A DNA stretch of 64,000 nt from the NCBI GenBank assembly GCA_040255465.1, contig JBDZVA010000003.1:621174-685173 (forward strand). The letters are read 5' to 3'. The notes beneath the pieces were generated by a model. It made no database searches. It saw nothing but the letters and a program-made list of their open reading frames with translations, and was not told the DNA's origin. A program made the position numbers and the translations under genes. Position 1 is the stretch's first letter. Each line of letters opens with the position of its first letter. This document shows positions 3,747 to 61,951 of this stretch, piece after piece. The stretch is from Planctomycetaceae bacterium (GTDB lineage: Bacteria > Planctomycetota > Phycisphaerae > Phycisphaerales > UBA5793).

Positions 3747-3816
3747 AACCCACTTCCGCGCCGCAATCGGGGCAGGCGCCGGTGGTGGTGGCACGGAGGT
3801 CGTAGTCGCGCGGACT
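3730..3816 (-). pseudogene. Second remnant of a zinc-ribbon family gene
   Basis: Frame ends ...SPRDYDLRATTTGACPDCGAEVGSGAVV*. Positions 3756-3810 resemble 1674-1730 with a few mismatches. It abuts the REP-like repeats and has no upstream coding partner. Confidence 0.4.
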
Positions 3817-3876
3817 CTGCGACGCGTGCGTCGCCGCTAGTCTGTTGAGATTCTGCGACGCATGCGTCGCCGCTAA
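3817..3876 (+). repeat. Composite REP-like element: two palindromic units separated by 12 nt
   Basis: ctgcgacgcgtgcgtcgccgctag (3817-3840), spacer tctgttgagatt, then ctgcgacgcatgcgtcgccgctaa (3853-3876). The core GCGACGCATGCGTCGC is a perfect 16-nt palindrome. Confidence 0.85.
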
Positions 3877-43612: not shown

Positions 43613-43755
43613 CGACCACGCAACAGCTTGCCCAATCCATCTCCGCCTCGCACCTCGCACCGGCCCTCCCGACTTTTGGGTGGGCTGGTCGAGTACAATT
43701 CGCCGTCCCGTCCCGCCCGGATGCTGACCGGGCCTGGTTCAACGTGCGAGATTCG

Positions 43756-45126
43756 ATGCCCAAGTCCATACTTATTGCCGAAGACGAACAGGTGCTGCGC
43801 GAGTCGCTGGCCGAACTGTTGACCCAGGAGGGCTACGAAGTCGTCGCGACCGGCGATGGCAAAGAGGCTCAGGCCATGGCTCTCGAGCGGTCCTTTGACC
43901 TTGTCATTTCGGACATTCGCATGCCCGAGATGGACGGCATCACGCTGCTGCATCACCTCGCGCGACTGGCGCCACAAACCCCCGTGATCATGCTCACGGC
44001 CTTCGGCACTGTCGACAGCGCCGTCAAGGCCATGCAGACCGGGGCGGTCGACTACCTGCTCAAGCCCGTTCAATTCGACGATCTTCTTCTTCGCATCAAC
44101 CGGGCCATCGAGCACGGCGAGATGGTCCGCAGCCATCGGCGCATGACCGACCAACTTGCCGCCGAAGGCTCGTTTCACAATCTCGTGGGCGAATCACCCG
44201 GCATGAAGCGACTTTTTGGCCTGGTTCACAAACTTGCCACGGTCAAGAGCAGCGTGCTGCTGCTGGGCGAATCAGGTACGGGCAAAGAACTCTTCGCCCG
44301 CGCCATTCATTACAACGGCATCACGCGCGACAAGCCCTTCGTCGCCGTCAACTGCGGCGCCATTCCCGAGAGCCTGATTGCGTCAGAACTCTTTGGCCAC
44401 CGCAAGGGTTCATTCACGGGCGCGACGGCGGACCGGGCCGGCTACTTCGAGGCGGCCAACGGAGGCACGCTGTTTCTGGATGAAATCTCCACCCTGCCGC
44501 TCGCCACGCAAAGCATGCTGCTGCGGGTGCTCGAAGAGCGCGTCGTGGTTCCCGTCGGAGACACGAAGCCCCGGGCCGTTGATGTTCGCATCATCGCCGC
44601 GACCAATCGCGATCTGCGCACCATGGTCGCCGCGGGCGAGTTTCGGGAAGACGTGATGTATCGCCTCGACGTGGTGAAACTGGAACTCCCGCCGCTGCGC
44701 CATCGGCGCGAAGACATCCCGCTGCTCGTACACCATTTTCTGCAGAAGTACGCCACGCAGATGAGCAAGCGCGTGCCAGGCGTCACCAACGGCGCGATGC
44801 GGGCCCTGCTCAACCATGACTGGCCGGGCAACATCCGCGAACTCGAAAACGTGATTGAACGCGCCGTCATCTTCACCGATGGCGATGAACTCGGCGTGGA
44901 CGATCTCCCGTTCCAGAGTGTGGAAGATGACGAACCGGGCGAAGAGCTGCGCGAGGCGCTCCGTCAGTTCGAACGCCAGCACATTCTCTACTGCCTTCGG
45001 CGGCACGACTTCGACAAGAACAAGACGGCCGAGCAACTCGGCATCGGCCTGTCGAGCCTCTATCGAAAGATGGATGAACTCGGCATCGCCAAGCAGCCCG
45101 ACGAGTCGCCGGACAAAGCGACCTAA
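43756..45126 (+). CDS. Sigma54-dependent two-component response regulator (NtrC family)
   Basis: REC domain (ILIAEDE...[14 protein letters not shown]...LKP). AAA+ domain with Walker A GESGTGKE and the sigma54-contact motif GSFTGA (GAFTGA variant). C-terminal HTH ([21 protein letters not shown]). Confidence 0.9.
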
Positions 45127-45530
45127 AACAGCAACTTGAACAGGTAATCCAGCCGGCCGCGCAGCACAATGCGTTTGCCCGACTCGCGCATGACCTTGCG
45201 AATCTGCGCGCGGTAGGTTGGGTGATAGCAGTGGGTCGGGCAGTGCTTGCACGCGGGCTTTGGATTGAAGGGGCAGGTGGTCCGCTTGACCCACGCGTGG
45301 GCGAGCAGTTTTGAGCATTCGGGACAGAGGATCAGCGGCCGGCGCGTCACTCCGGCAAGCCCCTCCGCCACGAACTCGGACTTGTCGCTTTCTCGATTTT
45401 GGTGATTTGCCTTGCAGTACATCTCAATAAAGAGACCCAGCATGCGCAGGTCTTTGCGGAGTTTCCGGTCCTTCAGAACCTCTGACGCCAGTACGGGCAG
45501 CCGAAATGAGCGATTTGCCGTCGAGATCAT
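45123..45530 (-). CDS. YgbA_NO family protein (nitrous oxide-stimulated promoter family)
   Basis: LILCPECSKLLAHAWVKRTTCPFNPKPACKHCPTHCYHPTYRAQIRKVMRESGKRIV closely parallels the E. coli YgbA motif KPACKQCPVHCYQP. Convergent with the response regulator, overlapping it by 4 nt. The start (45530 or the downstream ATG encoding MLGLFIEMYC) is uncertain. Confidence 0.7.
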   Translation of the reverse strand: MISTANRSFRLPVLASEVLKDRKLRKDLRMLGLFIEMYCKANHQNRESDKSEFVAEGLAGVTRRPLILCPECSKLLAHAWVKRTTCPFNPKPACKHCPTHCYHPTYRAQIRKVMRESGKRIVLRGRLDYLFKLLF

Positions 45531-45604
45531 GCCGTTCCTCGGAAATCGCGTTTGCAAATCCCGTGCCGCCCTCCTCTGGCGCGCCGTTTGTAGGGCATTA
45601 CCCG

Positions 45605-46720
45605 ATGCTCCGCAAGCGACTCCTTCTTGGACTTGGCTCGATGATCGTCCTGTTCGCCGTTCTGGCAATCGGGGCGGTCCTGCTGCTCGACCGCATCGTC
45701 GGCGAAATCGACGAGATCAAGGCCACGAGCACTACCTATATCGCGCACCTGCATGATCTGGGCGGTCGCATCAGCGCGGTCGAGAGCGCCCTCTATGCGT
45801 CCGACTCCGACTCCCCGAGCCAGGAGGAACTCAAGCGGCTGGCGGGCGACCTGCGCTCATCTCTCGATCCGCTTCAAGCCGACGCACTGAACTGGCCTGA
45901 AGGATCCGAGGCTCCGGCGATCCTCACCCGTATTCTTGCCTCGCTGCCCGGCTTTGCCGATCGGATTGATGCGCTGGCGCTCACCAACCTGCCCGGCACG
46001 TACTACACCGCGCGGGATGAAGTGCTCCGCAGCCACATCGCCCTGCAGACGGACGTACTCGATCTCACCCGGCTCGCCCGCGCCTTCGCCTCCGACAGCC
46101 AGACCGCAATGACCAATCGCTTCCGCTGGGTCGTCCTCGGGGTGGCGATCGCCTCGATCCTCGTGGTCAACATCTCGATCCTCGTGGTGCTGCGCACGGT
46201 CGGCCTCGTGCTGCGTCCGATGGAGGAGATCGTGGACGCCACCACGGTGTGGAGCGGTGAGCGGTTCGATCATCGCATTGCCCTCGATCAGCCTGACGAG
46301 TTCGGGCAATTGGCCCGGGCACTCAACCAGATGGCCGACCGACTGGAAGTGAACGAAACGCGAAAGATCGAGACGCTCCAGCAGACGGCGAGGATGCTCA
46401 ATCATGAACTCAACAACGCCCTGGCGATTATCAGCCTGCAGGTGCAACTGCTCGATCGGTCCAGGAACGCCTCGCCGGAACTCAAAGATCGACTCGATCG
46501 CATCCGCGCGTGCCTGGCCCGCATGACCAACACGGTCGATTCGCTCAAGCAGGTTCGGCGCATTGTGCTGACGGATTACGTGCCGGGTGAGAAGATGCTC
46601 GATCTGCCGCGCTCAATCAGCGAAGCAGCGGACAGCGACGAGGGCCCGCGCGAGGCGGAGATTGCCGTAGTCTCCACACTCAGTTCCACCCCAACTCGAC
46701 AGGGCTCCGAGCACTCGTGA
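45605..46720 (+). CDS. Membrane sensor with HAMP and DHp (HisKA-like) domains but no ATPase domain
   Basis: TM MLRKRLLLGLGSMIVLFAVLAIGAVLLL, a periplasmic ~170-aa region, a second TM, HAMP (LRPMEEIVDATTVWSGERFDHRIALDQPDEFGQLARALNQMADRL), then LNHELNNALAIISLQVQLL. It ends without N/G1/G2 boxes. GTGA overlap with the next gene. Confidence 0.7.
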   Translation: MLRKRLLLGLGSMIVLFAVLAIGAVLLLDRIVGEIDEIKATSTTYIAHLHDLGGRISAVESALYASDSDSPSQEELKRLAGDLRSSLDPLQADALNWPEGSEAPAILTRILASLPGFADRIDALALTNLPGTYYTARDEVLRSHIALQTDVLDLTRLARAFASDSQTAMTNRFRWVVLGVAIASILVVNISILVVLRTVGLVLRPMEEIVDATTVWSGERFDHRIALDQPDEFGQLARALNQMADRLEVNETRKIETLQQTARMLNHELNNALAIISLQVQLLDRSRNASPELKDRLDRIRACLARMTNTVDSLKQVRRIVLTDYVPGEKMLDLPRSISEAADSDEGPREAEIAVVSTLSSTPTRQGSEHS

Positions 46721-48078
46721 ACAGCACGCCTTCGACTGCCAACCACCGTCTCCTGCTCAGCCAGATTCGCTGGCTGGTGGCGCTGCGCTGGGGCGCTGGA
46801 TTCGCCGTCGCGCTGGCGGCGCTTATCGACTGGCTCTGGCTTGAGTGGTTCCCCAACGCCACGGCGGCGCTAATGCTGGGCGTCACGATTCTGGGGTTCA
46901 ATGCCATGGTCGCCGCGTGGACCCGGCGCAGCATTCCGCTCATGCGGCATCCGCGCCGGCTGCTGCTGGCGGTGTGGATCCAGATCGGCGTCGATCTCAC
47001 GCTGTTGGCCATCCTCACCGTCTGGACCGGCGGGCTCACAAGCATCATCAGCGGCTTTTTTGTGTTTCACATGGTCTTTGCGAGTCTGCTGCTCGGCCAG
47101 ACGATGGCCTACCTCGCCGCCACCTACGCCGTGTGCGTCTTCTTCACTCTGCTGTGCAGCCTCGGCGATTCGCCGACGACGCGGGCCGACACGCTCGCCG
47201 CGACGGGTTTTATCCTCACACTCTACATCACGGTGTTTATCGCCAACCACCTCACCACGCGCCTGCGCCGCAATGAACAACGCCTCTACGAGCACTCGCG
47301 GCGGATACTGGACATGTCGCACCGCCTGCGCGATCAGCAGCAGGCGATGGTGCAGCATGAAAAGATGATCGGCCTGGGTCAGCTCGCTGCCGGGCTCGCG
47401 CACGAAATCGCCAATCCGCTCGCCTCCATGGACAGCGTTCTCCAACTCATGATGCGCCGACCCGATCGGCCAGCAGGCAACGCACTGCGGACGCTGCGGG
47501 AACAGATTGAGCGCATCAGCAACATCATCCGCCAGATGACTGCATTTGCGCGTCCTGACGATCCGACCGGACCGCCGGTTCCCATCGGCCAGCTCATCGA
47601 GCGCGTGACAAGAATCGTCCAGCTCGACACTCGAGCCAAGCGCCTGCAACTGGTTGAGGATCTTGATCCTCACCTGGTCAACGATTGGGCGGTGCCTTCG
47701 GCCACTCAGCAGGTGCTGGTCAATCTCGCGATCAATGCGCTCGACGCCATGGCGGACGCAGCCGCCCCGTGCCTGACGATCCGACTGATCCAGCGTCATG
47801 ACAAGAACGTGATTGAGGTTCAGGACAACGGAACGGGCATACCGCCGCAGAACCTCAATCGCATCTTCGAGCCCTTCTTCACCACCAAGCCTGTTGGCAA
47901 GGGAACCGGCCTGGGACTGTCGATCTCCTACCGCCTCGTCGAAAAGCACGGCGGCACGATGCGCGTGCAGAGCACGCCGGGTCAGGGGACGACCTTCACC
48001 ATGTCCTTCCCCTCGGCGCCCGAGGCTAAGCGGCCCTCGACCCCGTCAACTTCTTCGGCCGAGGTCATTCGCGTTTGA
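46717..48078 (+). CDS. Polytopic membrane histidine kinase
   Basis: ~6 TM helices, H-box [17 protein letters not shown]-box [13 protein letters not shown]-boxes QDNGTGIP and [11 protein letters not shown]. Confidence 0.85.
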
Positions 48079-49957: not shown

Positions 49958-50017
49958 TTGCAGTCGGCGCTCAAATCCGTTAGAATGAAGGCCGCGGAGG
50001 CGTCGGCACGCCTCCGC
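49958..50017 (+). promoter_or_regulatory. Sigma70-like promoter TTGCAG-N17-TAGAAT plus 5'-terminal stem-loop
   Basis: ttgcag (49958-49963), 17-nt spacer, tagaat (49981-49986). A perfect 10-bp hairpin gcggaggcgt cggc acgcctccgc (49994-50017) begins at about the predicted TSS. Confidence 0.5.
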
Positions 50018-50053: not shown

Positions 50054-51688
50054 ATGTTCGCGTCATATTCTGCTCGTCGGCTTGTTCTGACCCTGTGTGT
50101 TGCCGCGTGCAGCACTCCGGCCTTTGCTCAGGCCAACCGCATCGTCAGCGTCAATTCCGACGGCAATCCGGCCAATAACAACAGTTACTACTCCGCAATC
50201 TCCGCCGACGGCCGATTTGTCGCCTTCCAGAGCGAAGCGAGTAATCTCGTCAGCAACGACTTCAACGGGCAGTACGACATCTTTGTCCGTGATATCCGCA
50301 CGGGCCAGACCACGCTCGTCAGCGTGTCGACCTCAGGCTCTTCAGCCAACAGCCTGAGCCTTCAGCCCTCAATTTCGGGCAACGGCCGCTATGTGCTGTT
50401 CGAGAGCAACGCGAGCAACCTCGTCAGCGGCGACACGAATGGCACGTGGGATCTGTTCATGCGCGACCTGCAGACGCAGACCACCATTCGGTTCAGTCTC
50501 GATTCCAATGGCAATCAGGTCTTTAGCCGCAGCGATTCGCCGAACTTCGCCGCCGACAATCGCTACATCATCTTCCACAGCGACGCCGCACTGGTGCCCG
50601 AAGACACCAACGGGTTCACCGACATTTACCGCTACGACGTGCAGTCCCGCGCCGTCATCCGTGTCAGCACGACTTCAAGCGGTGCGCAGGCCAACGGCAC
50701 AAGCTACCATCCGTGGATCTCCGCGGACGGCAACATGGTCGCATTCATGAGCAGCGCCACCAACCTCGTCGCCAACGACACCAACAATCAGGCGGACGTC
50801 TTTACCAAGAACATCGGCACCGGCGAGGTCCGGCGCGTCAATGTCTCAACGCAGGGCACCCAGTGCAATGACGAGACCGTCTGGCCGAGCATCTCGGGCA
50901 ATGGACGGATCGTGTCGTTCTGCAGTCGCGGCAGCACGCTCGTCACCGGCGACACGAACAACAACTGGGATGCGTTCGTTCACGACCTTCAGACGTCGAC
51001 GACCACGCGCATCAACGTTCGACCCGATGGCTCACAGGCCGACAGTTACACCCGCTCGCCGACGACCATGACGCGCGACGGCCGCTACGTCACGTTCGCC
51101 AGCCTCTCAACCAACCTCGTTCCCAACGACACCAACGGGTTCCAGGACATCTTCGTGCGCGACCTGCAGACGAATACGACCATTCGCACCAGCTTTGCGT
51201 ACAACGGCGGGCAGTGCGGCGACGACTGTTTTGTACCCTTCATCGCTGCCGACGGTCGCTATATTACTTTTACCAGCGAGGCCAACGACCACACGCCCGG
51301 CAACAACTATGCCGGCCGCGACATCTTCTGGCAGGATCTCGACGCGGCGATTCTGCTCGATCAGCAACCGCTCCGCCGCGGCGAACGTACAGAGTTCCAT
51401 GCCTATGCCGCCAATCCCGGTGAAACCGTCTACTTCCTCTACGGCACGAGCGGTGTGGGTGGCGGCCCCTGCCCGCCCCAACTCGGAGGTCTGTGTCTCG
51501 ATATTCGCAACGCCGTGCAGATCCTCGGCTCCGCTCGGGCGGACAACTCCGGCCACGCCATGATCAACCCGCGCCTCCCGGCCAATGCGCCGCTGATCGA
51601 GGTTCACACGCAGGCGGCCGTTCGGCGCGGCAACAATGGAGTCGACTCCGTGAAGTCCAACACGCTTTCTGATACGATTAGGCCATAG
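50054..51688 (+). CDS. Secreted seven-bladed PD40/TolB-like beta-propeller protein
   Basis: Signal peptide MFASYSARRLVLTLCVAACSTPAFA. Seven repeats of the type PSIS(A/G)(D/N)GR(Y/F)V.F.S.ASNLV..DTNG..D(I/V)F(V/M)RD(L/I). A distinct ~110-aa C-terminal domain. Confidence 0.75.
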   Translation: MFASYSARRLVLTLCVAACSTPAFAQANRIVSVNSDGNPANNNSYYSAISADGRFVAFQSEASNLVSNDFNGQYDIFVRDIRTGQTTLVSVSTSGSSANSLSLQPSISGNGRYVLFESNASNLVSGDTNGTWDLFMRDLQTQTTIRFSLDSNGNQVFSRSDSPNFAADNRYIIFHSDAALVPEDTNGFTDIYRYDVQSRAVIRVSTTSSGAQANGTSYHPWISADGNMVAFMSSATNLVANDTNNQADVFTKNIGTGEVRRVNVSTQGTQCNDETVWPSISGNGRIVSFCSRGSTLVTGDTNNNWDAFVHDLQTSTTTRINVRPDGSQADSYTRSPTTMTRDGRYVTFASLSTNLVPNDTNGFQDIFVRDLQTNTTIRTSFAYNGGQCGDDCFVPFIAADGRYITFTSEANDHTPGNNYAGRDIFWQDLDAAILLDQQPLRRGERTEFHAYAANPGETVYFLYGTSGVGGGPCPPQLGGLCLDIRNAVQILGSARADNSGHAMINPRLPANAPLIEVHTQAAVRRGNNGVDSVKSNTLSDTIRP

Positions 51689-51718
51689 TCCGATCGACCA
51701 CATGACAGGAGAGCCACG

Positions 51719-53101
51719 ATGACCATCCAACTCGCACGCGGATCGGCCGCGCTGACGCTGCGCACCCGGTTCCTGCTGACGGTCACGGCCGTCGCCGCGC
51801 TGGCGTGCTCTCGCCTGGCCACACTCGCCCTGCCCCCGCTGCCTGACGATTTCATCAACGATGATGCCATCATGTTCGCCGTCTTTGATCTTGCGCAGGC
51901 CACTCCCTCGGCGATCGACGCAACGGGGCGCGGGGTCATCGAGTTCATTCCAGAGTTTGGCGAGCAGATCGCGACAATTCGCCGCGATCACGAGGCCTTT
52001 CTGAACGCGGGCGGTCGCTACATCGTCATCGCCGCAGCGGACACCCAGTCGAACGATCTCTATGCGTTCATGCCGGTCGCGGGCGTCTATGTTGACGCCG
52101 AGCATTGCGATGAAACGGCGCTGACTGAACTCATCAGGAAGCACTCGGCGGAGGTCGTCAGCGATCCCGTCATCGAGCGTCACGGCGACTGGGTCATGCT
52201 GTGGAAAGCCGATCGCATGCGCCTGATCAACCGCAAGGAGGATGGGCCACTGCTCGAGATCCCCAACTTTGATCCAGTTCGCGCCGATCGACTTCGCGCC
52301 GCCTTCGCCGCGCTCAACGGACGTTCGGTGGGCTTGATGATGGTCCCCACGGACGAGATGCACGAAGAGGCCCAGCGCGAGTTTGGCCAGCTCGATCCCG
52401 ACAACGATGAGTATCCGGCCGCGATCCCCATGCTGCTCGCCTCCGCAGTGCAGATCCACGGCTGGATCGACCTGGGGCACAACCCATCCGTAACCAGCGT
52501 CATTGAACTGCCCGAAGCGACCATGGCCACGCAACTCACCCGGCTCATCCAGGGGTTGCCCAAGGCCTTTAACGCCGAAATGGACGGACTCGACGAAATG
52601 CTGGACGAGGCCGAGATGCAGTTGCCACCCGAAGTGAAGCTGATGTACAAGGTGCTCCATTCCTACACCTGTATGCAACAGGGCAGCACGGTGACCGTCT
52701 CCATCGGTCAGGCCAAGTTGCGCCCGATCCTCGATCTCGCCGGGCCGATCCTCGAGAAGCAGCGCGAGCAGGCGAAGAAGTACCAGGCCATGAACCAGCA
52801 GCGGCAGATCGGGATGTCGCTCATCATGTACGCCACCGACCACGACAACCAGTGGCCCGCTTCCCTCGATGATCTTGTTGCGGGAGGACAGGTCACGCGT
52901 CAGCAACTCGACGAACTGCTCACGCATCCGATCACCGGCGAGAAGATCGCGTTCAAATACGTTAAGCCGGATCGACGCTTCGATGAACTCGAAGACCCTG
53001 GCTCGGTTGTCGTCCTTTATGAACTCAAGAACGGCCAGATCAACCGGGAAGGCTGCATCTGCTACGCCGACGGCCACGTTGAAATGGGGGAACGCCAGTA
53101 A
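51719..53101 (+). CDS. Exported protein with DUF1559/H-X9-DG-like C-terminus, no prepilin leader (paralog 1)
   Basis: 460 aa. Hydrophobic N-terminus LLTVTAVAALACSRLATLA. C-terminal module QAMNQQRQIGMSLIMYATDHDNQWPASLDDL...CYADGHVEM resembles the post-helix part of planctomycete pseudopilin-like DUF1559 proteins. Confidence 0.7.
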   Translation: MTIQLARGSAALTLRTRFLLTVTAVAALACSRLATLALPPLPDDFINDDAIMFAVFDLAQATPSAIDATGRGVIEFIPEFGEQIATIRRDHEAFLNAGGRYIVIAAADTQSNDLYAFMPVAGVYVDAEHCDETALTELIRKHSAEVVSDPVIERHGDWVMLWKADRMRLINRKEDGPLLEIPNFDPVRADRLRAAFAALNGRSVGLMMVPTDEMHEEAQREFGQLDPDNDEYPAAIPMLLASAVQIHGWIDLGHNPSVTSVIELPEATMATQLTRLIQGLPKAFNAEMDGLDEMLDEAEMQLPPEVKLMYKVLHSYTCMQQGSTVTVSIGQAKLRPILDLAGPILEKQREQAKKYQAMNQQRQIGMSLIMYATDHDNQWPASLDDLVAGGQVTRQQLDELLTHPITGEKIAFKYVKPDRRFDELEDPGSVVVLYELKNGQINREGCICYADGHVEMGERQ

Positions 53102-54483
53102 TGAATTCGGCTCTGAGGTGCTCAACCGGACATGCCGCACGCCGAACTCGCACGCGCCGGTGCTCGGCTCTGACATCAATCGCGTGCCTGCTGGGCTCCG
53201 GTCTGATGGCGCGCGCCTTGCCGCCGCTGCCCGATGACTTCATCAACGACGAGACGCGCATTCTCGTCTGCGTCGACCTCGCGCAGGCCACGCCTTCCAC
53301 CATCGACGCCACGGGTCGGGGCATCCTGGAGAACCTTCCGGAATTTGGAGAGATCTACGAGGAGCTCCGCACCGACTTCGATGCATGCACCAACGCAGGC
53401 GCTCGCTTCATGGTTCTCGCCGCCGCCGATACCCGATCGCAAGACGTCTACGCCTTCATGCCCGTGGTCGGTCTCTTTGTCGATGCGGAACAGTGCGACG
53501 AGGCAACGCTGACGGAGCTACTCAGGAAACACACCCGGCCGATTACCGACCATCCCGTGATCGAGCGACACGGCGACTGGCTGCTGCTGTGGGAATCGCA
53601 ACGCCTGATCCTCACCCATCCGCTCGAGGATGGGCCCGATCTTAACATCCCCGGCTTCGATCCTGAGCGCTGCAAGCGCGTCCGCGCCGCCTATCAGGCT
53701 CTCGACGGGCGCGCCATCGGCCTGGCGTGGATTCCAACCGATCACATGCATGAGCAGGCCCTTGAAGAGTGGAACGCGCTGCCAGATCAGATTCACCAGT
53801 CGCCGGTCGGCATCCGCCTGATCGCCCAGCTGGCGCAGGAGATCCACGGCTGGATCGATCTCGGCCACAACCCTTCTATCACCGCCGTCGCCGAATTGGC
53901 TGAGGTCGCGCAGGCAACGCAACTTTCCGAGCTCATCAGGTCGATGTCTGACCGCTTCAAGGCCGAAGTGGAGCGCCTGCAGGAGGAACCCGAAGCGGCC
54001 CGCGAGGAAATGGCGTCAGAGATGGCGCTGGCCGGTCGCATCATCGGGGCCATCAACTGCGTCCAGCAGGGCAGCACCGTCACGGTCTCCATCGGCCAGG
54101 CTGACCTGCGGCCGATCCTCGATATGGCCGGGCCGATGCTCGTGCAGCAGCGCAGGCAGGCGCAGGAGATGGTCCTCATGTCCAACGCGCGGCAGATCAG
54201 CATCAGTCTGATCATGTACGCCAACGATCACGACAACCAGTGGCCCGATTCGCTTGATGTGCTCGCGGAAACAAGGCTTATGACCCGCCAGCAACTCGAC
54301 GAACTGCTGACGCACCCGGTCACGGGGGCGAAGCTCGCCTTCGAGTACGTCAAGCCTGACAAGCCGATCGACAAACTTGAGCACGCCGAAGACGTCGTAG
54401 TCCTTCGCGAACTCGAAAACGGCGCCGTCAAGAAGGGCGGCATCACGTGCTATGCCGATGGCCATGTCGAAAGTGGTTCGTAG
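53101..54483 (+). CDS. Exported protein with DUF1559/H-X9-DG-like C-terminus (paralog 2)
   Basis: Also 460 aa, collinear with paralog 1 (ALPPLPDDFINDE..., HGWIDLGHNPS, QQGSTVTVSIGQA.LRPILD, SLIMYANDHDNQWPDSLD, CYADGHVES). TAATG overlap with paralog 1. Confidence 0.7.
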   Translation: MNSALRCSTGHAARRTRTRRCSALTSIACLLGSGLMARALPPLPDDFINDETRILVCVDLAQATPSTIDATGRGILENLPEFGEIYEELRTDFDACTNAGARFMVLAAADTRSQDVYAFMPVVGLFVDAEQCDEATLTELLRKHTRPITDHPVIERHGDWLLLWESQRLILTHPLEDGPDLNIPGFDPERCKRVRAAYQALDGRAIGLAWIPTDHMHEQALEEWNALPDQIHQSPVGIRLIAQLAQEIHGWIDLGHNPSITAVAELAEVAQATQLSELIRSMSDRFKAEVERLQEEPEAAREEMASEMALAGRIIGAINCVQQGSTVTVSIGQADLRPILDMAGPMLVQQRRQAQEMVLMSNARQISISLIMYANDHDNQWPDSLDVLAETRLMTRQQLDELLTHPVTGAKLAFEYVKPDKPIDKLEHAEDVVVLRELENGAVKKGGITCYADGHVESGS

Positions 54484-55688: not shown

Positions 55689-57080
55689 GTGATTCCCGAG
55701 CGCGGCAAGGGCTCTGCCGCGCCTACTGTGGGCGACGTGTTGCGCTCGTTCTGGCCATCCTCGATCCACCCCCTGGCGCGGCGGAACTACCGCCACGAGT
55801 TGTCCGCGGTTGCCACTTGGCCGATCGCCGTGGCGATGATCGAAGGCACGGTCACAGGCATTCTCGCCAAGAAGGCTTTCGCTGACACGCCGGACTGGAT
55901 CATCGCCACCCTCGCCGCCGCCCCGGCCTTCAGCAACATGTCCAGCCTGATCTGGGCACGGCTGGCCAACGGCAGTCGCACGCTGCGCCACCTGCTCATG
56001 CTGCAACTGGGTATCGTGGTGCTGGTGGGGTGCATCGCCCTGCTGCCGCGATCCACCACCGGTTTGTATCTCTTCACGTTGTGCGCCGTGCTGGCGCGTC
56101 TGCTCATGACCGGCGTCATCACGCTGCGCGCGGTGCTGTGGCGCGCCAACTACCGCCGGCATGAGCGTGGCACGATCACCGGCCGGCTCATCATTGTCCA
56201 GACGATTCTCGTGTCGTCTTCCACGCTGCTGCTTGGCGAATTGATGGACCGGGACCGCGACAGTTTTCACTACGTGTATGGCGCGGCGGTGCTCTTCGGT
56301 CTGGCCGGCGTGTGGTTCTTCTCGCGCCTGCGCCTGCGTCACCCGTTTCTCATTCGCCCGGGCATCGCGCCGCGACAGCAGCCCCAGGGCTGGTCGATAG
56401 GCGGCCTGCTTGCCGAGTGGGCCAGCACGCTGAGTGAGATGATCACGATCATGCGCGATGACGTCGCGTATCGCGGCTTCATGGTCTGCATGTTCATCCT
56501 CGGCATCTCGAATCTTGCCATGGACGGCCCGCTCATCAAGGTCGCCGACGAACAGTTCCACCTCAGCTACATGCACTCGATCCTGCTGCTCAACTCCCTG
56601 CCGCTGGCACTCATGCCCGTGTCGATTCCGTTCTGGTCGCGCCTCATGCGCAACAGCCACATCATTCGGTACCGCTCGATTCACTCGTGGACTTTTGTCA
56701 TCGCCCAGTTCTGTGTCTTCGCAGCGGTCGTCAACGGTTCGCTCGTTCTGCTCACCCTCGGCCTGGCGGTGCGCGGCATGGGGTTCGGCGGCGGTGAACT
56801 CGCGTGGAACCTTGGCCACAATGACTTTGCCACCAGCGACCGCGCCAGCACCTACATGACCATCCACGTGACCTTGACGGGCATTCGCGGCCTCATCGGC
56901 GGGTACATTGGCATGTGGCTCTACGCTGGTTTCCCGACGAGTCGCGGAGTCGTCCCGCTGCTGGGCGAATACTGTTTCTTGTTCTGGGCCATCATCTGCA
57001 CGTGCGGGGCGCTGGGCTTTGTCTACCTCAACTTCCGCCTGGCGCACCTGACGCGCAACGGCCCGGAGGAGCAGCGGTGA
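55689..57080 (+). CDS. Polytopic membrane transporter (MFS-like)
   Basis: 463 aa with ~12 hydrophobic segments and Arg-rich loops. The start is uncertain because it lies only 8 nt from the divergent 55680 start. Confidence 0.6.
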   Translation: MIPERGKGSAAPTVGDVLRSFWPSSIHPLARRNYRHELSAVATWPIAVAMIEGTVTGILAKKAFADTPDWIIATLAAAPAFSNMSSLIWARLANGSRTLRHLLMLQLGIVVLVGCIALLPRSTTGLYLFTLCAVLARLLMTGVITLRAVLWRANYRRHERGTITGRLIIVQTILVSSSTLLLGELMDRDRDSFHYVYGAAVLFGLAGVWFFSRLRLRHPFLIRPGIAPRQQPQGWSIGGLLAEWASTLSEMITIMRDDVAYRGFMVCMFILGISNLAMDGPLIKVADEQFHLSYMHSILLLNSLPLALMPVSIPFWSRLMRNSHIIRYRSIHSWTFVIAQFCVFAAVVNGSLVLLTLGLAVRGMGFGGGELAWNLGHNDFATSDRASTYMTIHVTLTGIRGLIGGYIGMWLYAGFPTSRGVVPLLGEYCFLFWAIICTCGALGFVYLNFRLAHLTRNGPEEQR

Positions 57081-58144
57081 TGCAACACATTCTCGGCCAC
57101 GATCGCGCCATTGATGTCCTGCAGAGCGCCCTGCAGGCAGGGCGTTTGCATCACGCGTGGATCTTCCACGGCCCGGCCGGCGTCGGCAAGCGCACCACGG
57201 CCGAGGCACTGGCGGCGATCCTGCTCGATCCGAATGCGGCGCCCAACCTTTCCGGCCTCATCGAAGCCGACCCCGAGGGCAAAACCGCCCGCCTCATCGC
57301 CGCAGGCACGCACCCGGACCTGCACTTCATCACCCGCAGCCTGGCGTCCTATGTGACAGACGCTCGAACGCGTCGCGGCAAGCAGACGAACATTCCCGCC
57401 GAGGTCGTGCGCGAGTTCATCGTCGAACCCGCCACGCGTTCCGGGCACAACGGCGCGTCACGCGCTTCCAAAGTGTTCATCATCGACGAGGCCGAACTGC
57501 TCGATGACAAGGGGCAGAACATCCTGCTCAAGACGCTCGAGGAGCCGCCGCCCGGCACGGTGCTGATCCTGATTACGGGCAACGAAGATGAACTCATCCC
57601 CACCGTGCGCAGTCGCTGCCAGCGCGTGGCGTTCGGGCCGCTGGATGATGAGGCGATGTCCCGGTGGATCAAGTCCGCGGGATTCGACATCAACGCCGCG
57701 CACAAGCGCTGGCTGGTGCAGTTCGCCCAGGGCTCGCCGGGACTGGCCACCCAGGCGATCGAACACGGCCTGTTCGACTGGTACCTCGCGCTGGAGCCGA
57801 TGATCCGCACGATCGAGTCCGGCGCGTACCCGGCTGAGATGGGGACGACCATGGCCAAGCTGATCGACGCCCACGCCGTCGCCCGCCAGAAGGCCAACCC
57901 CAACGCCAGCAAGGAATCGGGGAATCGCGAGGCGGCGGACTTCGTTTTTGTTCTGCTCTCCCGCGAGATACACGCTGCGATGACGCGCACCATCGCAGCC
58001 GGCGACGACGTTGAGCCGCACTTGGCGGCGTTCGATCTCATTCATGACGCCGAGCGGCAGCTCGACTCGCACCTGAACCTGTCGCAGGTGCTCGAAAACC
58101 TGGTCATCCAGTGGTCGAATCTCTTCGACACTGCTGCGGCGTGA
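57080..58144 (+). CDS. holB: DNA polymerase III delta-prime subunit
   Basis: MQHILGHDRAIDVLQSALQAGRLHHAWIFHGPAGVGKRTTAEALA...FIIDEAELL...TVRSRCQRV (SRC motif). ATG 57080 overlaps the upstream stop (TGATG). Confidence 0.85.
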   Translation: MQHILGHDRAIDVLQSALQAGRLHHAWIFHGPAGVGKRTTAEALAAILLDPNAAPNLSGLIEADPEGKTARLIAAGTHPDLHFITRSLASYVTDARTRRGKQTNIPAEVVREFIVEPATRSGHNGASRASKVFIIDEAELLDDKGQNILLKTLEEPPPGTVLILITGNEDELIPTVRSRCQRVAFGPLDDEAMSRWIKSAGFDINAAHKRWLVQFAQGSPGLATQAIEHGLFDWYLALEPMIRTIESGAYPAEMGTTMAKLIDAHAVARQKANPNASKESGNREAADFVFVLLSREIHAAMTRTIAAGDDVEPHLAAFDLIHDAERQLDSHLNLSQVLENLVIQWSNLFDTAAA

Positions 58145-58736: not shown

Positions 58737-61559
58737 TTATCCGAACCCTCGAATCGACCCAAGTGCGGTCTGCTGCTGCTGGAGCGAGGCGAGCGCGGTC
58801 TCCATTGCCGAGAACTGCCGCTGGAGAATCCCACGCCGCGACTCAAGCCGGACGTCAAACGCCGCGATGCGCTTCTTCTGGATCTCGATCAGCGTGTCGT
58901 AGTTCTTGTTGACGACCGACATCGAGCCGTCAATCGTGTCCGTCATGCTCTTGAGCACTTCATTGAGCCGCTCAACGACGCCCAGCGATTTGTAGATCGG
59001 TTCATTCGACTTGTAGGTCACCCCACCGCCGAGGTCGATGTTCTGGTCGTCGGCGAGCTTGCGTGCGGCAAAGACATTGGAGACGGCATCGGGATCGGCG
59101 ATCAGCGCCTGGCGCAACCGGTCCTCGTTGAGGACGAGTTTCCCGCCGGTCCCGACGGTGATTCCAACCTGGGCGAGATTCTGGTATTGCGTCTCGACAC
59201 CCAGCGCCGAACTCTGCACGGTGCGGTACAACTGAGATTCGATACTGGCAATTGTGGAATTGCCCAGCAGTATGCCCTTCTCTTCCGTATCGGCATTGTA
59301 CTTGCCGAGATCGTTGATGCGGCCGATGACCGCGTTGAACGCCGTGATCCACGACTTGACGCTTTCGATCTGCTTGCCGGTGTTCTCAGTCACCGTGAGC
59401 GTCACGGGGGATTCGCTGGCCGACTTGAGATCGATCTTCACGCCCGTGACCACGTTATCGAGCGTGTTCTTCCTGCTGGTGATGAGAATCGCCTTTGCGG
59501 GGTCGCTCGAGCCGAAAAAGACCACCGCATCCTGCGCTTTGCTCAACGTGCTCAGGCCCAGATCGACGTCGCCCGAATCGACGATCAGATCGCCCGCCAG
59601 ACCGGAAATCTTGCTCGTGAGCGACAGGAAGTAGGGCTTCTCGCCGGTGCCGTTGTTAATCAGTGACGCCGAGACGTTGAATCCCGCATTGTTGATCTTG
59701 CTGATCAGATCATCGAGCGTGTCGGTCGGATCGAGCGCGACAGTCTGCTCGTAGGAGCCATCGATGAAGTTGTTGTCCGTCGCATCCGCGGCGGTTCCGA
59801 TGATGTTGAGATCTTTGGCGGTGCTGCCGGTGAGGCTTTCGATCTTGATCGCGGCCACCGGATCCGTGGCGGTGCTCTCGATGAGCAGGCCGTCGCCGGT
59901 GTCATTGATGCGGGCGTTGACCTCCAGTGGCTTGGAGTTGATCTCGGCAATGATGTCCTGAAGCGTCTTGGCGTCGGAGCCAATGTCGATGGTTGCGTTG
60001 TTGCCCAGGCCATCGGTGATCTTGAACGTGCCTTTGCCAATTCCCCGGCCGTAGTTCATCTCGGTGAGCAGTTTGGCGCCCGAGACGTACTGCAACTGGA
60101 GGTTGGTGCCGCGCACCGAATCGGCCGCCACGCCGCCCGGGTCGGTCTCGATGCCGAGTACGGGAGCGGCATCGCCGCCGATGATGAGATTCCCGCCCCC
60201 ACCCACGGTGTCGGTGATGAGCAGGCCGTTTCCGGCTGAGTTGAGCGAAGCCGTCACGTTGAGCGTCGCCGAGGCGTTGATCGCCGCAATGATGTCGCTC
60301 ATCGACGAGTTCGAATCGAGGGTGATGCTGTCGGAGTTGCCGGCGCGGTCGGTGATGTCGAGGGTCGTGGCGCCGCCCAGGCCACTGCCGCCATTGAGAC
60401 TCTTCGTGAGCACCGAATTCAGCCCGGCTCGGATGCGATCGCCGCCGATCTTGGTTGGCGTGCCGGGGTCGGCCGCCTTGAAGATGCCCAGGTCGATGGC
60501 GCCTTGCGTGGCGCCCGCCGTTCCGGCCAGCACCTGGAACGTCGAGCCACCGGCCGTGTTGTCCGTGAGCTCGATGCTGACCCCGTCGGCGCTGATGGCC
60601 ATGGTCACCGAGCCGCCGGTCTGCGATTCGATACGGTCCTTGACGCCCTGGAGCGTCGTGACCGCTTCCAGCGTGTCGGAACCCGAGGTGATCTTGCCGA
60701 GTTTGATGTCGTGGACAGTTCCATCGGCGGTGCGGACCTGGAAGTCCGTGAGATCGAGACCAGCGTTGATCTGCACTCCATTGCCGCCGTTGAGGGCGGC
60801 CAGTCTGCTGTTGAGGCCAATGCTGTTGAGTTGGGTGCCGACGATTTCGCCCGACCCCGTTCCGGCGATACCCAGCGAGGTGGCCGTGGTGTAACCGGTG
60901 GCGTTGGCGATGGTCAGCGACCCGCCGCCCCCGGCCGTGTCTGTCACCGTCAGTCCGGTGCCGTTGTCGCTGACTCTGGCAGTCACGTTGACGGTCGTGT
61001 CAGAGTTGATCGCGTCCAGCACGTCGTTGATCGTGACGGCGCGGGAGAGGTCGATTGTGGAGATCGCGCCCGAAGAGTCCGTAATCTTGATCTTGCCGCG
61101 GACGACGCCGCTGCCGTTGTTCAATTGGGTCAGGGCGGTGTCTGTCTCGAGGCGACCCTTGCCGAATTCAAATGAGATGTTCGACAAACCCAGCGCGGTC
61201 GCATCCCGATCCGTAAACCCGTTGGAGAGATACTGACTCGTCGAGACGAGTCGATCGACCAGGAACGTGTACGCCCCCTGTTGAGCCGAGGGAGTGGCCG
61301 TGCCGCTGAGCACTGCTTCATTGCTGCTGGTGACGGTCTTGGACTGAAAGGTCTTGTCCGTGCCGAACTTGGCGGATGCCGACTTGAGCGCGAGCAGCAG
61401 GCTGTTGAGTCCGAGAAACGCGGACTGCTCCGATTGCAACTGGGCCTGTCGATTGAGCGCGAGCACCTTGGGGCGCGACTCGACCGCGAGCAACTGCTGG
61501 ATCAAGGCACCTGTGTCGATGCCGCTGATCAATCCGACGCTGGTGGAAATACCGGTCAT
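58737..61559 (-). CDS. fliD: Flagellar filament cap protein FliD (unusually long, internally repetitive)
   Basis: N-terminus MTGISTSVGLISGIDTGALIQQLLAVESRPK and C-terminus ...RLESRRGILQRQFSAMETALASLQQQQTAL are FliD hallmarks. 940 aa from ATG 61559 (GGGAGAG upstream). The central part holds at least 4 repeats of ~55 aa (I.ITD..G....IDL......L.D.I..IN......V.A.(L/I/V)(N/S)..G.GL.(I/V).(D/S)T..GG). Confidence 0.85.
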   Translation of the reverse strand: MTGISTSVGLISGIDTGALIQQLLAVESRPKVLALNRQAQLQSEQSAFLGLNSLLLALKSASAKFGTDKTFQSKTVTSSNEAVLSGTATPSAQQGAYTFLVDRLVSTSQYLSNGFTDRDATALGLSNISFEFGKGRLETDTALTQLNNGSGVVRGKIKITDSSGAISTIDLSRAVTINDVLDAINSDTTVNVTARVSDNGTGLTVTDTAGGGGSLTIANATGYTTATSLGIAGTGSGEIVGTQLNSIGLNSRLAALNGGNGVQINAGLDLTDFQVRTADGTVHDIKLGKITSGSDTLEAVTTLQGVKDRIESQTGGSVTMAISADGVSIELTDNTAGGSTFQVLAGTAGATQGAIDLGIFKAADPGTPTKIGGDRIRAGLNSVLTKSLNGGSGLGGATTLDITDRAGNSDSITLDSNSSMSDIIAAINASATLNVTASLNSAGNGLLITDTVGGGGNLIIGGDAAPVLGIETDPGGVAADSVRGTNLQLQYVSGAKLLTEMNYGRGIGKGTFKITDGLGNNATIDIGSDAKTLQDIIAEINSKPLEVNARINDTGDGLLIESTATDPVAAIKIESLTGSTAKDLNIIGTAADATDNNFIDGSYEQTVALDPTDTLDDLISKINNAGFNVSASLINNGTGEKPYFLSLTSKISGLAGDLIVDSGDVDLGLSTLSKAQDAVVFFGSSDPAKAILITSRKNTLDNVVTGVKIDLKSASESPVTLTVTENTGKQIESVKSWITAFNAVIGRINDLGKYNADTEEKGILLGNSTIASIESQLYRTVQSSALGVETQYQNLAQVGITVGTGGKLVLNEDRLRQALIADPDAVSNVFAARKLADDQNIDLGGGVTYKSNEPIYKSLGVVERLNEVLKSMTDTIDGSMSVVNKNYDTLIEIQKKRIAAFDVRLESRRGILQRQFSAMETALASLQQQQTALGSIRGFG

Positions 61560-61649
61560 GAAAACTCTCCCGAGAATCGCGTCCCCGCCACTGACCCGAT
61601 GATCCCGTCCCCGAGGCGCGCAGTGTGAGCGGGGTGGCCAACGCTCTTG

Positions 61650-61665
61650 AGCAAGGCGGATGCCT
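61650..61665 (-). promoter_or_regulatory. Candidate sigma54 promoter upstream of fliD
   Basis: Minus strand reads AGGCATCCGCCTTGCT, with GG-N10-GC spacing and a TTGCT -12 box, ~90 nt upstream of the fliD ATG. Confidence 0.4.
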
Positions 61666-61951
61666 GACTCCATGCCGAGCCGGGACATCCGGCACGCATC
61701 CCTGCCGCCGACCGATCCCCGGTTTCAGCTCCGTGGCGCCGGCTGCGGAGTCCCAAAGGGATTATCGACCGCGCCCGGGGCCATCCTTCAGCGGACCCGG
61801 GCCGCGCAGGGCTTGCGCCTTTCGGCAAGATCGACTCTCCGGCCGCCTACCTTGAAGGGCACGCTGCAATCCGCGACATAATCAGACCCGTTTGGCCGCT
61901 CCGCCCCTGATGCGACTTACCTGAGCCCGGCTGCGGGCCGATCTTCCACCT

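Follow-up and report, generated by a model that had tools for sequence, protein, structure and literature searches.

Polymerisation of pilins requires the hydrophobic N-terminal half of helix alpha-1 and Glu5. That a pilin head can be encoded apart from the polymerising helix is known from the split pilin PilA-N/PilA-C of Geobacter, in which PilA-C works with a separate short helix subunit encoded beside it. The PilA-N/PilA-C pair has been discussed before (PMC9207759), and in planctomycetes the DUF1559 proteins are the most numerous set of paralogues, with 68 copies, two of them essential, in Planctopirus limnophila, and with unknown function (PMC10632474). In Treponema pallidum, the lipoprotein TP0453 resides in the outer membrane, on the side of the inner leaflet (PMC7521688). 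The window analysed here, a stretch of 64,000 nucleotides from the Planctomycetaceae bacterium assembly GCA_040255465.1 (Phycisphaerales; contig JBDZVA010000003.1), carries two tandem genes, paralogue A (51719..53101, +) and paralogue B (53101..54483, +), whose products join an N-terminal domain to a C-terminal, DUF1559-type pilin head and lack a prepilin leader. With a probability of roughly 0.6, A and B are Sec-exported, soluble two-domain proteins that act as non-polymerising extracytoplasmic binding or sensing modules and belong to a large uncharacterised family.

Both open reading frames (ORF) were 460 aa long and collinear, as described in the initial annotation, and the TAATG overlap reported there was found as well: at the junction (cagTAATGaat) the TAA stop of A (53099-53101) and the ATG of B (53101-53103) shared one base, at 53101. 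The two proteins, previously judged by eye to be roughly half identical, had 243 of 436 positions in common (56%; 72% positives, 0 gaps, E = 0; BLASTP). That they are equally long is a coincidence: a 2-residue difference between the signal peptides is offset by an opposite 2-residue difference at the C-terminal ends. The segments ALPPLPDDFINDE, HGWIDLGHNPS, QQGSTVTVSIGQA, QRQIGMSLIMYATDHDNQWPASLDDL and CYADGHVE were all present, and were invariant or nearly so across 16 close homologues. Against the orthologous pair of Phycisphaerales bacterium UBA5793 (L004/L006), dN/dS was 0.12 for A and 0.21 for B, values which indicate that both are real, functional genes; A was 85% identical to its UBA5793 orthologue at the aa level in the codon alignment and 87% identical by BLASTP. 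An antisense ORF of 690 aa (51107..53179, -), spanning A and part of the gene upstream of it, had neither homology nor dN/dS support and was taken as an artefact of high G+C (~62-64% in the window).

No longer N-terminus is possible for A, because the upstream gene lies in the same frame and ends 30 nt before it (stop at 51686-51688), and ATG 51719, which is preceded by AGGAG, is the first start codon after that stop; the alternative upstream start with a prepilin leader that had been raised as a counter-case is thus not available to this gene. Each protein started with basic residues, followed by a hydrophobic core. The predicted signal peptide of A (residues 1-37; 51719..51829, +) comprised an Arg-rich n-region, the core FLLTVTAVAALA and T-L-A followed by LPPLP, with the best 10-residue hydropathy (2.38) at residue 19, and that of B (53101-53217, +) ended in A-R-A followed by LPPLP. 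The 16 close homologues were variable before the cleavage region and almost invariant from (A/L)PPLPDDF onward, and most of them had Ala at position -1 of the junction and a small residue (Ala, Thr or other) at -3. A hydrophobic N-terminus was present in 115 of 123 family members (400-500 aa type, close clade included). The second paralogue of UBA5793 had been shortened by the start choice of the gene caller; its full ORF, which begins at a GTG and overlaps the first gene's stop codon, carried a normal signal peptide. The N-terminus was concluded to be a Sec-type signal with a putative signal-peptidase-I site (small-x-Ala).

The absence of a prepilin leader, as initially proposed, was borne out: apart from P0113, a prepilin-type protein treated below, no family member carried a motif of the G-F-T-L-x-E type, none was found in the six frames of the window, and the window proteins had no match to the prepilin N-methylation models PF07963 and TIGR02532 at E <= 1. 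A lipoprotein reading was rejected, Cys30 of A and Cys29 of B, both within the signal peptides, not being conserved in the orthologues.

The C-terminal domain (residues 331-460 of A, 52709..53098, +; by position, 54097-54480, +, in B) was assigned as a leaderless pilin head from its AlphaFold2 (AF2) model, its identity to P0113 and its hhalign match to P0206. P0113, one of the best 150 representatives of the family search, is a protein of 134 aa beginning with MKRHCFTLIELLVVIAIIAVLAALLLPALSKAR; it passed both PF07963 (29.1 bits, threshold 21.2) and TIGR02532 (22.3 bits, threshold 16.3) as a true prepilin-type protein, and its gene adjoined another N_methyl gene. The great majority of P0113 relatives carried PF07963 and PF07596 and bore the names 'DUF1559 domain-containing' or 'prepilin-type processing-associated H-X9-DG'. 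Residues 346-458 of A aligned with residues 30-134 of P0113, the entire post-helix part of that protein, with 39% identity over 113 residues (E 3e-24). The profile of the C-domain only (A6) aligned with P0206, a P0113 relative carrying PF07963 and PF07596, with a probability of 98.7 (E 3.8e-16; hhalign). In this alignment 'KLRPILDLAGP' stood opposite the hydrophobic 'IIAVLAALLLP', and the invariant Pro343 therefore corresponds to pilin Pro22, counted from Phe6 of P0113. These pairwise and profile comparisons show homology between the last ~130 aa and the heads of prepilin-type DUF1559 proteins.

The last ~120 aa had been described in the initial annotation as resembling DUF1559/H-X9-DG. The likeness to the head stood, but membership by the curated models did not: neither window protein matched PF07596 (DUF1559, SBP_bac_10; gathering threshold 23.3 bits), TIGR04294 (H-X9-DG; threshold 19 bits) or PF08334 (T2SSG) at E <= 1. 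The His of H-X9-DG was replaced in the window proteins (Ile441 and Val443) and was retained in 1 of 112 relatives; W, I, P, V and others occupied the position across the 112 members. D451, G452 and H453 were invariant, the conserved trio being D-G-H, and E435 was a further conserved residue of the head. Homologues gave sub-threshold matches, always to these families and in the right place, namely P0018 to TIGR04294 (E 0.1), P0009 to PF08334 (E 0.13, residues 345-417) and the close homologue P0015 to PF07596 (E 0.24, 11.8 bits). Relatives scored 12.1-14.8 bits with TIGR04294, and 18 of 107 relatives of the same architecture matched PF07596 at E <= 0.01, a few of them above threshold and with the match confined to profile positions 2-36 of 268. 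A word-indexed search with the C-domain-only alignment returned 7 proteins only. No significant match came from sequence searches of PDB, whether with one protein or with two profiles; GspG scored E 0.65. Judged by sequence, the C-domain is a short, divergent sister of the DUF1559 head that falls outside DUF1559 by curated criteria.

The AF2 model of residues 325-460 (mde1988d9041a; predicted local distance difference test (pLDDT) 93.7) had the topology of pilins and pseudopilins, a long N-terminal helix packed on an antiparallel sheet. In the numbering of the model, the helix covered residues 7-50 (44 residues) and the strands residues 88-90, 107-113, 122-125 and 130-132; the sheet was small, with three to four short strands, and the D-G lay in the turn of the last (YADGHVE) hairpin. 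With Foldseek, the top PDB matches of the isolated C-domain were type IV pilins (TcpA, CofA), and were not significant (E = 2-8).

The N-terminal domain (residues 38-330 of A, ~295 aa, 51830..52708, +; by position, 53218-54096, +, in B) was alpha/beta with about 10 strands in the AF2 model, and residues ~38-330 had no Pfam, NCBIfam or PDB sequence match. In the full-length model (m23935e1a6bb2; pLDDT 78.7, predicted template modelling score 0.67), the best and sole significant Foldseek match of this domain to PDB was TP0453 (3k8g; E 7.6e-5, probability 1.0, template modelling (TM) score 0.41, root-mean-square deviation (rmsd) 10.5 A), a weak resemblance from which a TP0453-like fold is tentatively suggested. 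Across the wide family only D57, G98 and A270 were near-invariant in the N-domain, and the head was the best conserved part of the protein. The N-domain was not claimed as DUF3352: against a DUF3352-like group of ~720 aa, only the head aligned (HMMER, hhalign).

An exhaustive profile search yielded 8,623 cluster representatives with E <= 1e-3, of which 868 had E <= 1e-10, and the architecture statistics rest on the best 150 of these 868. The initial claim of a new architecture for the H-X9-DG module was overstated. The architecture is widespread and partly auto-annotated, because 110 of the best 150 representatives were proteins of 400-500 aa with the same build and some relatives were already labelled 'H-X9-DG protein' by the Joint Genome Institute (JGI); DUF3352 together with DUF1559 was also seen by Pfam in P0101 (DUF3352 at 29.8 bits, above threshold) and P0102. 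However common, the architecture is undescribed in the literature searched on DUF1559, H-X9-DG and DUF3352, and it is without a Pfam or NCBIfam family model, so that proteins of the family are annotated as hypothetical at present.

Five relatives (P0044, P0098, P0108, P0138 and P0149; 114-127 bits, E 1e-23 to 1e-31) were BlaR1/M56 fusions, with the second half of the N-domain and the head as their C-terminal module (aligned with query residues ~170-240 to 450). The Peptidase_M56 membrane domain was present in these five fusions and absent from the window proteins. The BlaR1/M56 gene of P0044 lay directly after a blaI-type repressor gene (PF03965; the pair spans L015 5599-8466), with genes for an extracytoplasmic function (ECF) sigma factor and for a beta-propeller-bearing Ser/Thr kinase nearby. 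Relatives of the DUF3352 type with the head were about 720-1100 aa long. P0160 had a zinc-ribbon-like N-terminal segment (sub-threshold Pfam matches only) followed by a hydrophobic stretch, P0166 had a similar start and hydrophobic stretch as judged from its N-terminal sequence, and P0100 and P0127 had lipobox-like N-termini (LVGC and LVAC, read by eye). Two heads per polypeptide were observed in P0139 (two PF07596 stretches) and in P0023 and P0045 (two D-G-H motifs), mirroring at the domain level the tandem gene duplication of the window pair. A scan of genome contigs found 4 loci only, all from close Phycisphaerales/Planctomycetota metagenome-assembled genomes (MAG), and the neighbourhoods of distant members, on short contigs, gave no informative linkage except the blaI-blaR1 pair.

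Under the favoured reading, cleavage by signal peptidase I would release a mature protein probably starting at LPPLPDDF. The N-domain, tentatively TP0453-like in fold, runs through one continuous helix of 44 residues into the DUF1559-type head, in which the second half of pilin alpha-1 (Pro22 equivalent included), the sheet and the D-G hairpin at the end are kept. A beta-hairpin of the N-domain stands in place of the first ~11 pilin residues, those with the prepilin-peptidase site, Phe1 and Glu5, and the remainder of the hydrophobic pilin helix has turned amphipathic. Since A and B lack Phe1 and Glu5 as well as the site for prepilin peptidase and the hydrophobic half of alpha-1, they cannot, judged from their sequence and from established pilin biology, be held in the inner membrane, cut by prepilin peptidase or polymerised by a type 2 secretion system (T2SS) or type 4 pilus (T4P). 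A role as non-polymerising extracytoplasmic binding or sensing modules is likely, mainly because in relatives the same module is the extracytoplasmic C-terminus of BlaR1/M56 transducers; the relatives with lipobox-like N-termini, and those with zinc-ribbon-like starts and hydrophobic stretches, were also counted for an extracytoplasmic sensor role. A and B are translationally coupled, and they may form a heterodimer or complex, a speculative reading that fits the coupling and the linkage to a beta-propeller gene in two genomes.

That upstream gene (50055..51688, +) encoded a PD40/TolB-like beta-propeller (PF07676 PD40, E 3.5e-13) with its own signal peptide. The ORF was listed from TTG 49940, and ATG 50055 was the likelier start, with a purine-rich stretch before it and a normal signal peptide. 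The PD40 gene is probably the first gene of an operon and co-transcribed with A and B in this genome. It was also present with two paralogues in L016 (PD40 at L016 3899-5530), and was absent at the syntenic locus in L001 and L004. A candidate sigma-70-type promoter for the operon (TTGCAG-N17-TAGAAT; 49958..49986, +) was read from the sequence and was not called by a consensus scanner; this promoter-like site, with its conserved 'aaatccgTTAGAAT', occurred upstream of the PD40 gene both here and in L016 (about 3790-3830).

The locus was syntenic in the three related MAG for which gene tables were examined (L001, L004 and L016), in the order NtrC-type sigma-54 activator, HAMP-HisKA protein, PilS-like histidine kinase with six transmembrane helices (6TM), His_Phos_1 gene, TrkA-like gene (minus strand), one or two family copies and N6/N4 DNA methylase. 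In the window, the activator, the HAMP-HisKA protein, in which no HATPase was detected, and the PilS-like kinase occupied 43744-48078 (+), and the PilS-like 6TM domain of the kinase scored 27.6 bits (threshold 27). Control of the operon by the upstream PilS-like kinase and sigma-54 activator was considered and rejected, since no TGGCAC-N5-TTGCW was present in the intergenic region before the operon; across the window this pattern had 34 matches against 30.8 expected, which is chance level. Copy number was one in GCA_020852515.1 (L001), and the genes were in tandem in UBA5793 (L004), in L016 and in the window. Because the L016 pair fell within one clade of a neighbour-joining tree, more than one duplication, or gene conversion, is suggested for the family pairs.

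Two other features of the window lay downstream. As listed, an ORF for a major facilitator superfamily (MFS) transporter (55689-57080, +) and one for the DNA polymerase III delta-prime subunit (56915-58144, +) overlapped by 166 nt; compared with the 354-aa product of L004, the delta-prime start was probably ATG 57080, which leaves a 1-base overlap with the MFS stop, as in the paralogue pair. At 983 aa, the product of fliD (flagellar cap; 58737-61688, -), in which FliD_N, Flagellin_IN and FliD_C domains were present, was unusually long; the UBA5793 orthologue (940 aa) adjoined fliS.

Several results weigh against the reading of A and B as exported binding or sensing modules. Export by Sec, signal-peptide cleavage and solubility in the periplasm or beyond are predicted only. 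The curated DUF1559, H-X9-DG, T2SSG and prepilin N-methylation models were silent on both proteins, the pilin matches of the isolated head in Foldseek were not significant, and the TM score of the TP0453 match was low. The sensor role is extrapolated from M56 fusion homologues that were only about 20-30% identical, and the conserved neighbourhood, with its TrkA-like and N6/N4 methylase genes, gives no clue to function.

Homology of the head to prepilin-type proteins along its whole length would also suit a pilus accessory, in which the leaderless head docks onto DUF1559 fibres or assembly intermediates through pilin-pilin head contacts, as a cap, adaptor, chaperone or decoy, and the N-domain adds another activity. 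The size of the DUF1559 group and its two essential members in P. limnophila (PMC10632474) agree with such a role, as do the PilS-like histidine kinase and NtrC-type activator upstream in conserved synteny. However, neither a T2SS or T4P ATPase nor a further pilin-like gene was encoded in the 64-kb window, no frame offered a prepilin-like N-terminus, the sigma-54 pattern was missing before the operon and at chance frequency across the window, and the BlaR1 fusions point to sensing and not to fibre binding; an accessory of this kind was considered unlikely. A similarly low probability was given to a carrier of lipids or other hydrophobic ligands, or a membrane-active protein, in which the TP0453-like N-domain does the work and the pilin head is a structural appendage. 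The Foldseek match to TP0453 and the two relatives with lipobox-like N-termini speak for it, but the superposition was poor (rmsd about 10 A at the TM score given above), the head and not the N-domain was the best conserved part, with D57, G98 and A270 the only near-invariant positions of the latter, and no lipobox Cys was conserved in the window proteins. That A and B are true fibre subunits by an unconventional route, or that their resemblance to pilins is convergent and without homology, was held very improbable. The silence of the curated pilin models and the lack of a significant Foldseek pilin match would fit either version; the hydrophobic N-terminal half of alpha-1 and Glu5, both needed for polymerisation, are absent, which counts against a fibre subunit, and convergence is hard to reconcile with 39% identity to P0113 over 113 residues and a profile match at E 3.8e-16.

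If A and B are instead non-polymerising binding or sensing modules, a widespread branch in which the head works without a fibre would imply an independent function for the head. The members wired to BlaR1/BlaI would then offer a tractable route to the ligand, and are the most useful lead. A broader proposal is doubtful: that DUF1559-class heads, stripped of the polymerising helix, were repeatedly recruited for recognition in the periplasm, as domains that are either soluble or linked to a receptor, and that the stand-alone and BlaR1-linked versions recognise the same class of ligand as fibre-borne heads. If true, a blaI/blaR1-type reporter would be the first experimental handle on recognition by the DUF1559 head.

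Compared with the DUF1559/H-X9-DG prepilin-type proteins (PF07963+PF07596, TIGR04294), the window proteins shared the C-terminal half of alpha-1, marked by the pattern ...AR..A.r..s.sN.rQi..a...Ya.d..g..P, as well as a Pro22 equivalent and the ...aDG.v strand at the end. They differed in having a Sec signal and a ~295-aa N-domain in place of the prepilin leader, Phe1, Glu5 and hydrophobic helix, and in a head that was short (about 90 aa after the helix), lacked the H-X9-DG His and scored below the model thresholds. With GspG, the major pseudopilin of T2SS (PF08334, 3g20), they shared the predicted topology, in which a long helix precedes a small sheet made up of three to four short strands. 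GspG was the sole sequence-level match of the family profile in PDB and fell in the right region, but was far from significant (E 0.65; P0009 to PF08334, E 0.13); unlike GspG, the window proteins lack a helix for polymerisation, and their genes have none of the T2SS nearby. Geobacter PilA-C is likened to them by build and not by sequence, and nothing like its partner helix subunit was encoded at the window locus.

TP0453, the best structural match of the N-domain, resembles it tentatively, being an exported protein with an alpha/beta sandwich, and differs in that similarity was low (TM 0.41, sequence identity about 10%) and that TP0453 is a lipoprotein without a pilin head, whereas the window proteins had no conserved lipobox. 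The DUF3352 + DUF1559 proteins (P0101, P0102 and the ~720-aa group around P0019) shared a Sec signal, a large N-terminal domain and a leaderless DUF1559-type head, but their N-domains were larger and had no detectable relation to that of the window proteins (HMMER, hhalign). The BlaR1/M56 transducers (P0044 and others) shared the second half of the N-domain and the pilin head as a C-terminal sensor, whereas the window proteins stood alone, with a predicted cleavable signal and without the M56 protease or membrane domain.

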